64,000 nucleotides of DNA. Source: Escherichia phage UGJNEcP3. Shown here piece by piece: positions 15,577-20,013 of the stretch (within the stretch, counting starts at the first letter, position 1; each line of letters starts with the position of its first letter). Made by a program: the position numbers and the translations under genes. The notes under the pieces are model-generated. The model was not told where the DNA came from, searched no databases, and was given only the letters and a program-made list of their open reading frames with translations. Location: the sequence record OV876907; one strand, written 5' to 3'.

Positions 15577-15681
15577 TTACTTTTTAAAGTGAGCTGCTAT
15601 TAAACCTATAGCTAGGCCTGTGGCCAGGCCTAGGATAATAGCAAAGATACAGAGTAACAAGAACTCGACTCCAAGGCTCAT
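15577..15681 (-). CDS. 34-aa hydrophobic micro-protein coupled to gene 52
   Basis: ATG overlaps gene 52 stop (ATGA); MSLGVEFLLLCIFAIILGLATGLAIGLIAAHFKK is one TM helix. Confidence 0.45.
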   Translation of the reverse strand: MSLGVEFLLLCIFAIILGLATGLAIGLIAAHFKK

Positions 15682-17057
15682 AGAGACTCCAAATCTTTAA
15701 CATACTCAGTTACAACATCAGTGGTTTTCCAATATTGATGCTCTTCTTTCTTAGCCTTGGCTTCGAGGGCCAGTTTCTTGGCTTCGTCAGAAGTGATATG
15801 GAAAATGTTCATGGCCACTAGTTTATCGGCATATTCGCCATAGACTTTATTACCGGTCAATTCTTCGGTTAAAACCTTACGGGTCTTACCTTGGATAACC
15901 ACTACACCATCAATAACATCTTTGATAAATGTGGCTTTAGCCAATGCTAGTTTGAAAGCTTCTTCGGTTTCGATGATTTTACCATCAATACGTTTTTGTA
16001 CAAAGGTCTTACGGACCTCAACGAAATCACGAATCAGTTCAACTACATCTTCGTAAACCTTAAGTTTACCTTTTTCATTAATGACGGTCAGGTTTTGTGA
16101 ACGACGTTCGATTAACCCGAAGTCCTTCATGAGTTTTTCGTGTTTCTTATCTTCATCGGTAGGCAATTCATATTCTTTACGAATCTTAACCTTGAAGCCA
16201 AAACCGTTCTCGTCACAGTCATCATCATATGTGATGTACCCTTTGTCTTCCAGAGGGTCTAATACCTTAGCCACATATGTTTCACGGTCATATTTGTATG
16301 GGATTTCCGTGATATGCATTTGGGTTCGAGATGTGAACTTATACGTTCCACGAATCTCATAACTACCTGGTTCAATTTCAACAACTTCACCTCGGAATTC
16401 AGGATAAGCCACTTTAGGCTTGGTTACTCGTTTTTCCTGAAGAACTTGCAATACAGCTTTCTTAACAGAATCAAAACTATGAGGAAGAATATTAGTTGCA
16501 TAACCAGTTGCAATACCGGAAATACCATTAAGAAGAACAGTAGGAATAATAGGCAGATAAAAAGCCGGTGGCTTATGTTCGACATCCGCATGAACCGGAG
16601 CATATTCTGTGTCCTTATAAACTTTTGCAAAGTTACTTCCGATACGAGCAAAAATATAACGAGAGGCTGCAGCCTTTTGAACCAATCGAGAACCGAAGTT
16701 ACCTTGACCGTCTAACAATGGATAGTTGTTGTTCCATGTGTTAGCCATCAAAGCCCCTGCTTCCTGAGCAGAACCTTCACCATGGTGATATCCAAGGTCG
16801 GCTACGCCACCAGCAATAGAAGCTAGTTTGTGGAATTTTTCTTTATTACCACGAGCCATATCAAGACAACGAGCAACTACAAAACGTTGTACAGGTTTAA
16901 AGCCGTCAATCATATTTGGAATGGCTCGGTTTTCGACAGTATACATTGCATAAGCCAATGCTTCGTTGTCGATAATACTTTTTAAGTCACGACGAGTGAA
17001 AGAATCATCGTAAACATCTAAAGCCTGTTTAAAAAGGGTATCAATTACATCAGCCAT
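15678..17057 (-). CDS. 52: DNA topoisomerase II medium subunit gp52
   Basis: 459 aa; GyrA-type N-terminus (AMYTVENRAIPNMIDGFKPVQR), T4 gp52 size and position. Confidence 0.9.
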   Translation of the reverse strand: MADVIDTLFKQALDVYDDSFTRRDLKSIIDNEALAYAMYTVENRAIPNMIDGFKPVQRFVVARCLDMARGNKEKFHKLASIAGGVADLGYHHGEGSAQEAGALMANTWNNNYPLLDGQGNFGSRLVQKAAASRYIFARIGSNFAKVYKDTEYAPVHADVEHKPPAFYLPIIPTVLLNGISGIATGYATNILPHSFDSVKKAVLQVLQEKRVTKPKVAYPEFRGEVVEIEPGSYEIRGTYKFTSRTQMHITEIPYKYDRETYVAKVLDPLEDKGYITYDDDCDENGFGFKVKIRKEYELPTDEDKKHEKLMKDFGLIERRSQNLTVINEKGKLKVYEDVVELIRDFVEVRKTFVQKRIDGKIIETEEAFKLALAKATFIKDVIDGVVVIQGKTRKVLTEELTGNKVYGEYADKLVAMNIFHITSDEAKKLALEAKAKKEEHQYWKTTDVVTEYVKDLESL

Positions 17058-17061
17058 AATT

Positions 17062-17202
17062 TTACCATACTAGTGAATGAATAGCCATAATAACATCGGA
17101 AATAAAAAGCACAACTTGGATAAGTCCGAACATTACTCCATAATACAGTGCTACTAATAAAGCAGCAAGGGCTACTGAGTAGCCCAAGATTTTCTTAATC
17201 AT
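17062..17202 (-). CDS. 46-aa membrane micro-protein (52.1 position)
   Basis: ATG 17200-17202 overlapping ac-like stop; hydrophobic. Confidence 0.45.
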   Translation of the reverse strand: MIKKILGYSVALAALLVALYYGVMFGLIQVVLFISDVIMAIHSLVW

Positions 17203-17356
17203 TTTTAATCATCTTAAGTAAACCGACAGAAGTAGAAAGAACCCAGCCAATAAACAGAAAACTTAAGAATACCGGACCAGGGGCCCACACACCTAAAAAG
17301 AAGCAAACTGAACAGACTATAGCCATAATAAGTTCAATAAAAACTAGGATAACCAT
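17195..17356 (-). CDS. ac: Ac-like 53-aa membrane protein
   Basis: ATG 17354-17356 with GAGGA SD; two hydrophobic segments; position between stp and 52 as T4 ac. Confidence 0.5.
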   Translation of the reverse strand: MVILVFIELIMAIVCSVCFFLGVWAPGPVFLSFLFIGWVLSTSVGLLKMIKND

Positions 17357-17366
17357 ATTTTCCTCA

Positions 17367-17444
17367 TTAGCGTCCGAAGACGCCTTTAGTTTTAAGATTG
17401 TTACGATAGAACTGCATCACATGCTCGTTATGGAAATTACTCAT
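17367..17444 (-). CDS. stp: Stp peptide (25 aa)
   Basis: ATG overlaps ndd stop (TAATG); [25 protein letters not shown] matches T4 Stp as recalled. Confidence 0.75.
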
Positions 17445-17893
17445 TAGTATGCCTGCAGAATGAATTTAAAGTTATCAGCCAACATGCGGTTCATTTCTTC
17501 CAGTGTCTGGAGGTCGGAACTATGATTGCGGGTGAAAGCCATTGCAATTTGACCCTTACCAAAACCGGTGGTCAGAGGTTTCATCTTAGAAGCTGGTACA
17601 TAAAGAACTTCATACACAACACCGTTCACTGCCATGGTGCGAGCTGATTGAGAACGTTTCTTACGAATGTTAGCCACGATGCCATCAAGACCTTGGGCCG
17701 AACGTTGATTACCGACATAAAAACGAGCAGCTACGACACGAGAATCAGCTCCACCTTTAACAAAGAAGTAGAAGCCTGGCTGAGCAGAGATTTCTTTAGA
17801 AGGTTTACCATTTTGGTATTCACCGTTCTTAACATAAGCAACAGTAGTAGCACCAGCAGACAGAACGTTACGGCGAGTCATATAAGTATTCAT
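17444..17893 (-). CDS. ndd: nucleoid disruption protein Ndd
   Basis: 149 aa; ...[10 protein letters not shown]...[25 protein letters not shown]...[20 protein letters not shown] matches T4 Ndd (memory). Confidence 0.9.
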
Positions 17894-17942
17894 ATCAATT
17901 TCCTCAGTAGATTAATGTTTTGTTATCCGGTCAACGAGAACC

Positions 17943-17971
17943 ATTATAACATGATTCTCGAGGTTGTAAAC
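17943..17971 (-). promoter_or_regulatory. early promoter for ndd
   Basis: GTTTAC(17966-17971), 17 bp, caTGtTATAAT; inverted repeat CGAGAA/TTCTCG flanks -10. Confidence 0.55.
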
Positions 17972-18315
17972 TATTTTTGTAGCTGTTCTAAAATAAATCC
18001 GCTCGTATAAAAAGAAGCATTATAAACCTTGTTCAGCGGGTTCAAAGCCTGTCCGTAAGTATCACGTAGTTCTTTGATAACATTTTCATAGCTTACATAA
18101 TAACCACTATGATAATACGGGTCCATACTCATACGAAATTTAATAAACCGATAAAATCCTGTTTCTGGGTCTTGAACGAAAACGAAATCGGCACCCATCA
18201 TAATTTTTGAATCTACGCCAGGAATCATACTTTGATTGAATGCCACCGATGCATCCTGAAGGCTGAGTTGTTTAAAGAACATTACCTTAGCATTACCAAA
18301 AAAGATTTTAGACAT
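17971..18315 (-). CDS. hypothetical protein (114 aa from internal ATG)
   Basis: ATG 18313-18315 with AAGGAAA SD after upstream stop; track ORF extends to 18339. Confidence 0.6.
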   Translation of the reverse strand: MSKIFFGNAKVMFFKQLSLQDASVAFNQSMIPGVDSKIMMGADFVFVQDPETGFYRFIKFRMSMDPYYHSGYYVSYENVIKELRDTYGQALNPLNKVYNASFYTSGFILEQLQK

Positions 18316-19431: not shown

Positions 19432-20013
19432 TTATAAGGCGAGATACCAGCCGTTGTAATTGCTCTTACGGACTAGCTTTGTGATGGCTTCTCTGTCGCC
19501 AGAGAACTTAGGAGTGAACAGGACGTCGCCTGCCTCATTTACTGAAGTGTCGAATATAATTATACAGTCTGCAACTTTATGATTCAAGAGCGGTCCCAGG
19601 TTAATCCCTGTTCCATAAGGGAAGTCACCGGAGTATCCTGTAGTACAGGAAATCCACTTAGAATCTGATTGATGGGTCTTGACCTCTACACGTAGTCCAC
19701 AATACATAGGATGAGCTAAAACATCCCATGCATAGGTATAAGGGTCGTCATGGTCTTCCAGACCACTGTTAACATATCCTTTCAACCAATCAGCCACCAT
19801 ATACTCGGCATACGTTGCAATGACACACCGAGTCAATACTTCTTTCTTATCTTGGGACGGGTCTTGGCTTAAGGAATACAGTACGGTATCCTTAATCTTA
19901 ACCTTCATTTCGCCTGTTAAATCAGATGTCTTCAGGGTAAATGTCGGCATCGCTGCCAATCGGAGTAGTCCCGGGTTCGTCTTCACCATAAATGCCTCGA
20001 ATATGAAGTTCAC
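19432..20013 (-). CDS. hypothetical protein at the denB position (start uncertain)
   Basis: 193-aa ORF; upstream part overlaps next ORF so true start is probably an internal ATG (19950 or 19908); DenB identity unverified. Confidence 0.45.
   Translation of the reverse strand: MNFIFEAFMVKTNPGLLRLAAMPTFTLKTSDLTGEMKVKIKDTVLYSLSQDPSQDKKEVLTRCVIATYAEYMVADWLKGYVNSGLEDHDDPYTYAWDVLAHPMYCGLRVEVKTHQSDSKWISCTTGYSGDFPYGTGINLGPLLNHKVADCIIIFDTSVNEAGDVLFTPKFSGDREAITKLVRKSNYNGWYLAL

Follow-up and report, generated by a model that had tools for sequence, protein, structure and literature searches.

A T4 Stp orthologue and two small predicted membrane proteins, one of them without detectable relationship to Ac, between ndd and gene 52 of Escherichia phage UGJNEcP3

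The locus described here lies in sequence record OV876907 of Escherichia phage UGJNEcP3, of which a stretch of 64,000 nucleotides was analysed (the window, to which all coordinates refer unless stated otherwise). Between ndd and gene 52 it carries three very short genes, which are read, like their neighbours, from the minus strand. The features of the locus, in the direction of reading, are as follows.

17943..17970, minus strand: sigma-70-type early-promoter-like site, located some 50 nt upstream of ndd and made up of TTTACA, a 16-nt spacer and TG-TATAAT.
17444..17893, minus strand: ndd, encoding the nucleoid disruption protein, 149 residues (Pfam PF06591, 230 bits; phrog_1102).
17367..17444, minus strand: stp, encoding 25 residues, an orthologue of T4 Stp (PF08133, 72.1 bits; phrog_6763).
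17369..17384, minus strand: RNA hairpin GGCGUC-UUCG-GACGCU, lying within the codons that end stp (GVFGR plus stop).
17195..17356, minus strand: ORF53, a two-helix membrane micro-protein of 53 residues (phrog_9347, 88.8 bits).
17062..17202, minus strand: gene 52.1, a predicted membrane protein of 46 residues (DUF7396; PF24129, 79.9 bits; phrog_3595).
17140..17164, minus strand: MotA-box-like middle-promoter motif (TGCTTTA, 12-nt spacer, TATTAT), within 52.1.
15678..17057, minus strand: gene 52, encoding the DNA topoisomerase II medium subunit, 459 residues, identified from the open reading frame and from record annotations (those of OV877765.1, JS10 and T4 concur on the name).

The genes are very closely packed. 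The A at position 17444 is common to the TAA stop codon of ndd and the ATG start codon of stp (TAATG, a 1-nt overlap). There is a 10-nt gap after the stp stop codon, with the sequence GAGGA at 17365..17361 ahead of ORF53. ORF53 and 52.1 overlap by 8 nt (ATGATTAA), and the ATG of gene 52 at 17057 is 4 nt past the stop of 52.1 at 17062. The original prediction, made from the sequence alone, had described a 25-codon ORF starting in a TAATG overlap right after ndd, followed by two overlapping hydrophobic micro-ORFs of 53 and 46 residues, and had called them coupled. For the 25-codon ORF the coordinates, the peptide and the overlap are all correct. The lengths of the other two are also correct, as is the 8-nt overlap; both proteins are strongly hydrophobic (GRAVY 1.76 for ORF53 and 1.75 for gp52.1), and the tight stop/start packing that led to the word coupled is real in the sequence.

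The length of these ORFs is not in itself evidence that they are genes, because ORFs as short as this occur by chance in AT-rich DNA. It is on the basis of their conservation that stp, ORF53 and 52.1 are taken here as real genes. There are also plus-strand ORFs within the interval (for example 17077..17157, 26 residues), which are short and were treated as chance occurrences.

The gene order, ndd, stp, a variable gene, 52.1 and 52, is that of T4, whose reference genome has stp (26 residues), ac (51 residues) and 52.1 (46 residues) in these positions. The overlaps between genes throughout the ndd-52 interval match those of the T4 record, and the order and junctions of stp match those of JS10 as well. 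As in T4, stp follows directly after ndd with the 1-nt stop/start overlap and has the same ribosome site downstream, while 52.1 has the same 8-nt overlap with the gene upstream of it and stands directly before gene 52. We therefore consider it very likely that this region belongs to a T4-like phage and corresponds to its conserved early block, ndd-stp-[slot gene]-52.1-52, with the slot occupied by ORF53, a gene that is not of the Ac family. Such a block is ordinary for this group of phages, and the Stp locus is already known.

Positions 16900-18000 are 100% identical to Escherichia phage UGJNEcP4 (OV877765.1; Straboviridae, Tevenvirinae, Dhakavirus). Compared with 151102..170590 of that record, the window has 0 mismatches; it then runs beyond the end of the linear record, which falls at window position 19489/19490. 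Positions 16900-18000 are 93-98% identical to Dhakavirus-type relatives, with WG01, IME08 and JS10 among those listed.

The deposited records of these phages differ in which of the small genes they annotate. In OV877765.1, ORF53 is annotated (as a hypothetical protein), and the 25-residue stp and the 46-residue 52.1 are left unannotated. The JS10 record annotates stp and 52.1 and omits ORF53, and several relatives likewise have no annotation for ORF53. The micro-genes stp, ORF53 and 52.1 are systematically missed by gene callers. Taken alone, the locus is of little importance, being one more copy of stp in a sequenced phage. The main additions made here are these gaps in the annotation of deposited records, and a small footprint of cassette swapping in phage EAWsc9, described below.

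The peptide encoded directly after ndd had been matched to T4 Stp in the original prediction, and that match proves to be correct. Against the annotated T4 Stp (NP_049878.1, 26 residues), residues 1-25 are identical in 25 of 25 positions, including the whole of the N-proximal 18-residue functional core; the differences are that the T4 peptide has an additional Gln26 and comes from a Tequatrovirus, whereas the peptide in the window has 25 residues and comes from a Dhakavirus. At the DNA level there are two synonymous changes relative to T4 in 25 codons, and the 3' end of the gene reads TAA-TGA in place of the CAG-TGA of T4, an ending also found in JS10. The peptide matches the Pfam family PF08133 ("Anticodon nuclease activator family", gathering cut-off 25 bits) with E = 2e-20 over residues 1-25 and profile positions 1-25 of 26, and phrog_6763 with 73.6 bits. 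It is hydrophilic and basic, with a GRAVY of -0.94 and a net charge of +3. No sequence match to a protein of known structure was found in the PDB at E<=10.

A tblastn search found Stp in 820 phage records, in 438 of them at an identity of at least 99%. Copies are also present in unrelated siphoviruses, namely the Kagunavirus PDP21P8, Bas95, the Tunavirus Lg3 and the Tlsvirus Stevie; in the literature searched, no paper was found on Stp outside the T4-like phages. All of these siphovirus copies pass the Pfam threshold, and those from Drexlerviridae match residues 1-18 only. The copies in Kagunavirus, Bas95 and Lg3 each have a ribosome site of their own in front, of GGAG or GAGG type; for Stevie, a ribosome site is given in the annotation of the record. 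The ratio pN/pS is between 0 and 0.27 across the copies compared, and stp is under strong purifying selection. The Kagunavirus copy is a good example: relative to the window its pS is 0.80, so that synonymous sites are nearly saturated, and its pN is 0.057. For the Kagunavirus and Bas95 copies together, pS is 0.80-0.86 and pN 0.06-0.11. This conservation of the peptide across copies indicates that Stp is a real peptide product.

The identity of the 46-residue ORF is equally clear. It is identical to T4 gp52.1 (NP_049876.1) in 44 of 46 positions, the two changes (L10V and L41I) being conservative, and it matches PF24129 over its full length, far above the cut-off of 27 bits. Compared with T4, pN/pS is 0.09; values for Kanagawavirus and EcS1 were left out, since the comparison was ungapped and the proteins are shifted by one residue, which makes it invalid. 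On its sequence, the ORF, to which the original prediction had given no name, is the known gp52.1, a protein that is nearly invariant in T-even phages and is predicted to be a tiny inner-membrane protein.

The remaining small gene is ORF53. It matches phrog_9347 from end to end (residues 1-53, against all 53 positions of the profile), and has no family match in Pfam (E<=1) or NCBIfam. The family, of which nine members were aligned, is characterised by a length of 52-55 residues, the motifs F-[IL]-E and G-x-W-x-P, and a place between ndd and 52; ORF53 has all of these features. The length of 52-53 codons and the motifs are kept in Dhaka-, Gapriver-, Kanagawa-, Kagamiyama- and Winklervirus, and every locus of the family that was inspected lies between ndd and 52. 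Homologues were found by tblastn in 79 of 50,697 phage records, all of them T4-like. A search of 5.8 billion proteins with a profile of the family gave 19 clusters, none of them functionally named. The long contigs among them are of T4-like size, and the named members are T4-like phages. Relative to the other genera, the uncorrected pN/pS of ORF53 is 0.4-0.7, which indicates moderate constraint.

A structure was predicted for ORF53 using AlphaFold2 without an alignment. The model shows one helix over residues 2-22 and another over 28-52, interrupted at VWAPG; its mean pLDDT is 82.6. On our best reading, ORF53 would form a helical hairpin in the inner membrane, as one of several small membrane cassettes found in the interval.

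In T4 the same slot is occupied by ac, which encodes the acridine-sensitivity membrane protein, and the original prediction had called the 53-residue ORF ac-like. According to a recent proposal, T4 Ac blocks the AcrAB-TolC efflux pump (bioRxiv 10.1101/2025.06.30.662393; PMC13250531). The two genes lie in the same slot, probably coupled to both stp and 52.1. Throughout stp and 52.1 the DNA of T4 hardly differs from that of the window, and between TGAGGAAAATATG and AATGATTAAG the two are unrelated; the slot is bounded in both by these two junctions, the first upstream and the second downstream. The proteins are of similar length (53 and 51 residues), both have an architecture of two hydrophobic helices, and both end in Asn-Asp. 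In phage AugustSocin, moreover, the homologue of ORF53 is annotated as an 'acridine resistance protein'. All this speaks for the reading that ORF53 is an orthologue of T4 Ac that has diverged far from it, or a protein with an equivalent function.

On the sequence evidence, which bears on homology more than on function, we nevertheless regard this as unlikely. ORF53 and T4 Ac (NP_049877.1) give no BLASTP alignment at E<=100. ORF53 is assigned to phrog_9347 and Ac to phrog_2501, with no cross-match at E<=1. Profiles made from hand-built alignments of related phages, with nine sequences of the ORF53 family and six of the Ac family, were compared using hhalign, which gave a probability of 0.5%. 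Pairwise BLASTP, the PHROG, Pfam and NCBIfam scans and hhalign are thus all negative for ORF53 as a homologue of Ac. The absence of any Pfam match at E<=1 also means that ORF53 matches none of the Pfam families of small efflux-pump partners. The common C-terminal Asn-Asp has a simple explanation: where the two genes share 8 nt, the codons AAT GAT TAA are read against ATG ATT AAG of 52.1, and the start of that gene dictates the ending.

Both families also occur in single genomes, and are therefore different genes, not alleles. Using positions within the locus of each phage, EcS1 has an Ac-like gene at 561-698 directly before a gene of the ORF53 family at 701-859, and Gravdalen has the same arrangement, with the Ac-like gene at 552-692 and the ORF53-family gene at 701-859. 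EAWsc9 also has both, with the ORF53-family gene at 701-859 and the Ac-like gene at 966-1118. As a statement of homology, then, the term ac-like fails: there is no BLASTP alignment, the PHROGs are separate, the profiles do not match, and the families are found side by side in three phages. Since ORF53 has no detectable homology to T4 Ac, the label on the AugustSocin gene must rest on its position, and 'acridine resistance protein' should not be propagated to other genes of the ORF53 family. Dhakavirus phages are predicted to lack acriflavine sensitivity of the Ac type, and whether they do would bear on the proposals that link Ac to AcrAB-TolC.

In EAWsc9 the slot is present as a tandem duplication. 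A segment made up of the final 64 nt of stp and the ribosome site (641-704) is repeated at 906-969 with 97% identity, and the 47 nt that open the 52.1 region (852-898) are found again at 1107-1153 with 100% identity. The layout that results is [stp 3']-ORF53 family-[52.1 5']-[stp 3']-Ac-like-[52.1], in which recombination by way of the conserved junctions has left a direct footprint. Other micro-ORFs are also found in the interval, including one of 57/58 residues directly after ndd in many phages and one of 43 residues in Kanagawavirus.

On the basis of these observations we tentatively put forward a wider hypothesis, which is possible but on the whole doubtful: that ndd-52 is a recombination hotspot in which coupled cassettes for micro-membrane proteins are swapped by way of short junctions, and that ORF53 has a target other than that of Ac. 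The cassettes would be Ac, the ORF53 family, the 57/58-residue family and the 43-residue family. The junctions would be the 3' end of stp, with its hairpin and ribosome site, at one side, and the first 45 nt or so of 52.1 at the other. ORF53 might then act on a host-envelope target of its own, unlike that of Ac. If this is true, phages that carry ORF53 in place of Ac would be naturally insensitive to acriflavine, and would gain some other function at the level of the membrane.

For stp the question is one of activity. Stp is a textbook phage anti-restriction factor, which the host protein PrrC uses as an alarm of infection. In T4 it inhibits type IC restriction (EcoprrI and EcoR124I) and not type IA, and leaves modification unaffected (PMC3014915). 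In hosts whose prrC gene sits inside a type IC locus, Stp unmasks the latent PrrC, and PrrC then cuts tRNA-Lys 5' of the wobble base (PMC3014915; PMC12707154). Unmasking needs GTP hydrolysis, DNA with unmodified sites, and dTTP, and T4 mends the cut tRNA by means of Pnk and Rnl1 (PMC3014915; PMC12707154). The role that had been proposed for the peptide in the window, interference with type I restriction and triggering of PrrC, agrees with this literature, more specifically for type IC enzymes (PMC3014915; PMC12707154). A 2025 account still calls the molecular mechanism of the inhibition unknown (PMC12707154).

By analogy with T4, the Stp of this phage would be a soluble basic peptide that binds the host type IC complex, of the EcoprrI/EcoR124I type. 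Given its identity to T4 Stp, binding would be expected to block DNA cleavage and to spare methylation. In hosts that carry prrC, the same event would unmask the PrrC anticodon nuclease, leading to cleavage of tRNA-Lys, which the polynucleotide kinase and RNA ligase 1 of the phage could then repair. Genes for these two enzymes are annotated in OV877765.1 (at 138895..139800 and 141948..143096; the assignment is that of the annotation only), 8-12 kb outside the window. As both repair genes are annotated in the genome, the full Stp-PrrC-repair circuit appears to be present.

The cytosine of T-even DNA is modified, and type I restriction is for the most part ineffective against such DNA; for this reason it is not obvious what advantage Stp gives to this phage. 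Other phage anti-restriction proteins are T7 Ocr, ArdA and ArdB/KlcA, which like Stp are small, are made early and disable type I restriction enzymes. Of these, Ocr and ArdA mimic DNA; they are acidic, exceed 100 residues and act on several families of type I enzyme. Stp differs from them in being a basic peptide of 25-26 residues. It is specific for type IC (PMC12707154).

The one visible difference from T4 Stp, the missing C-terminal glutamine, raises the question of whether the peptide in the window is a weakened or inactive variant. The change itself is not in doubt, since the CAG (Gln26)-TGA of T4 is replaced by TAA-TGA both here and in JS10. However, the activity of T4 Stp is carried by the N-proximal 18 residues, and removal of the eight C-terminal codons lowers both of its activities only moderately (PMC3014915), so that the loss of Gln26 is unlikely to matter. 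The loss-of-function (suppressor) mutations in T4 stp cluster in residues 4-14 (PMC3014915), all of which are identical in the window peptide. Forms of 25 residues are likewise found in Kagunavirus and Bas95, and the remainder of the stp ORF is under purifying selection. We conclude that a weakened or inactive Stp is very unlikely.

The arrangement of the genes also allows some suggestions about their expression. The early-promoter-like site upstream of ndd scores 11 of 12 in a consensus scan and has an extended -10 TG, and is likely, judging from its sequence, to be the start of an ndd-stp-ORF53-52.1 transcript. The four genes would then probably be co-transcribed from this early promoter. 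Translation may well be coupled through the successive junctions (the 1-nt overlap, the 10-nt gap with its GAGGA, the 8-nt overlap and the 4-nt gap). The ribosome-binding sequences ahead of stp, 52.1 and 52 are weak, which together with the tight junctions plausibly fits coupling by termination and reinitiation.

Data from T4 are consistent with early expression. The supplement of PMC9697503 places the RNAs of T4 stp, ac and 52.1 in the early class. In the same supplement, one of the two temporal-class columns is empty for each of these three genes, while both are filled for ndd, and in the proteome table ndd has intensities and stp, ac and 52.1 are absent (PMC9697503). Most likely, then, it is the protein class that is left empty. 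Absence from the T4 proteome would be expected for peptides that are tiny or hydrophobic.

The last stp codons contain the UUCG hairpin, which is 3 nt upstream of the GAGGA site of ORF53. The segment 17400..17340 folds with -12.6 kcal/mol (z = -2.07). T4 and Gaprivervirus retain the hairpin by way of changes that are compatible with wobble pairing and, in Gaprivervirus, synonymous. It is absent from the copies in T2 and Drexlerviridae, and double changes that truly compensate each other are not seen. No Rfam family was found in 16800..18200 on either strand at E<=1. It could be speculated that the hairpin is the reason why the C-terminus of Stp, dispensable as it is, has been conserved.

A more radical proposal would be that what is conserved in the 25-codon ORF is a nucleic-acid element, either the hairpin or a spacer for the translational coupling of ndd to the next gene, and not the peptide; the hairpin does overlap the last five stp codons, which are largely dispensable in T4 genetics, the stp DNA is almost invariant between T4 and Dhakavirus, and the peptide is unrecorded in the T4 proteome data (PMC9697503). 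This is extremely improbable and is already largely refuted: most synonymous sites are changed in the copies of Kagunavirus and Bas95, which keep the peptide, in unrelated contexts and with GGAG ribosome sites of their own, the copies in T2 and Drexlerviridae that lack the hairpin keep residues 1-18, and both genetics and expression from plasmids show that the T4 peptide is itself active (PMC3014915).

It is worth adding that the MotA-box-like motif within 52.1 is about 83 nt upstream of the ATG of gene 52. In a pattern search, this type of site was found 18 times in the window, where 3.4 would be expected by chance.

Escherichia phage EAWsc9 (PQ341120.1, comparison locus L005) contains a tandem duplication of the stp-52.1 slot, in which both edges of the slot occur twice.

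L005 641-704 and 906-969, repeat of the stp 3' end and ribosome site, 64 nt, 97% identical
L005 852-898 and 1107-1153, repeat of the 52.1 5' end, 47 nt, 100% identical

Because the 3' end of stp and the 5' end of 52.1 are each repeated, a single genome carries a gene of the ORF53 family, the start of 52.1 and the end of stp as truncated copies, an Ac-like gene and one complete 52.1. The duplication is a footprint of cassette exchange via the conserved junctions.

In the window, the stp 3' end also carries a hairpin.

Window 17369-17384, minus strand, UUCG-tetraloop hairpin with a 6-bp stem, overlapping the final stp codons

The hairpin terminates at the stp stop codon, with the ORF53 ribosome site 3 nt further on, and the final codons that it covers are largely dispensable by T4 genetics. 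It is retained in T4 and Gaprivervirus by means of wobble-compatible synonymous changes. It is absent from the stp 3' end of T2 (AP018813.1), where the C-terminus of Stp differs (…NFGILGFKK). The ac gene in the T2 record (L016 699-851) matches T4 Ac throughout except for a stop at codon 11, which is TAA in T2 and Ser in T4 Ac.

Many T4-like phages have an additional hydrophobic ORF of 57/58 residues immediately 3' of ndd, which in UFV-AREG1 and Shfl2 overlaps the stp ATG.

L011 444-617, UFV-AREG1, 57/58-aa hydrophobic ORF between ndd and stp
L012 429-602, Shfl2, 57/58-aa hydrophobic ORF between ndd and stp

The same ORF is present without stp in Kanagawavirus phages, EcS1 and Gravdalen (L006-L010). 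In UPEC01 (L013 523-681) an upstream ORF is in frame with stp, and the two are annotated together as a single 52-aa protein.

Stp-family peptides that pass the PF08133 threshold are also found in unrelated siphoviruses, a distribution on which a literature search found no paper, the Stp similarity being already noted in Stevie's own record.

L017 1501-1578, Stp-family peptide of Kagunavirus PDP21P8
L018 1501-1578, Stp-family peptide of Bas95
L019 1501-1581, Stp-family peptide of Tunavirus Lg3
L020 1501-1581, Stp-family peptide of Tlsvirus Stevie

In the Drexlerviridae copies, conservation is limited to residues 1-18, the functional core established in T4. A gene for polynucleotide kinase lies 1.2 kb downstream in Stevie.

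The deposited annotations of these small genes are incomplete. Both stp (window 17367-17444) and 52.1 (17062-17202) are unannotated in OV877765.1, the record deposited for this very phage (UGJNEcP4), as is ORF53 in the records of JS10, JS98 and IME08. In the AugustSocin record the ORF53 homologue is named 'acridine resistance protein'; despite this label, no homology is detectable between ORF53 and T4 Ac. The linear record OV877765.1 ends at 170590, equivalent to window position 19489, and the window continues beyond this point (19489/19490); its source was therefore a copy of the genome that had been joined into a circle or had another permutation.

A pattern search (TGCTTNA, 11-13 nt, TANNNT) identified 18 MotA-box-like middle-promoter motifs in the window, compared with 3.4 expected by chance, and one of these lies within 52.1.

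Window 17140-17164, minus strand, MotA-box-like motif approximately 83 nt 5' of the gene 52 ATG
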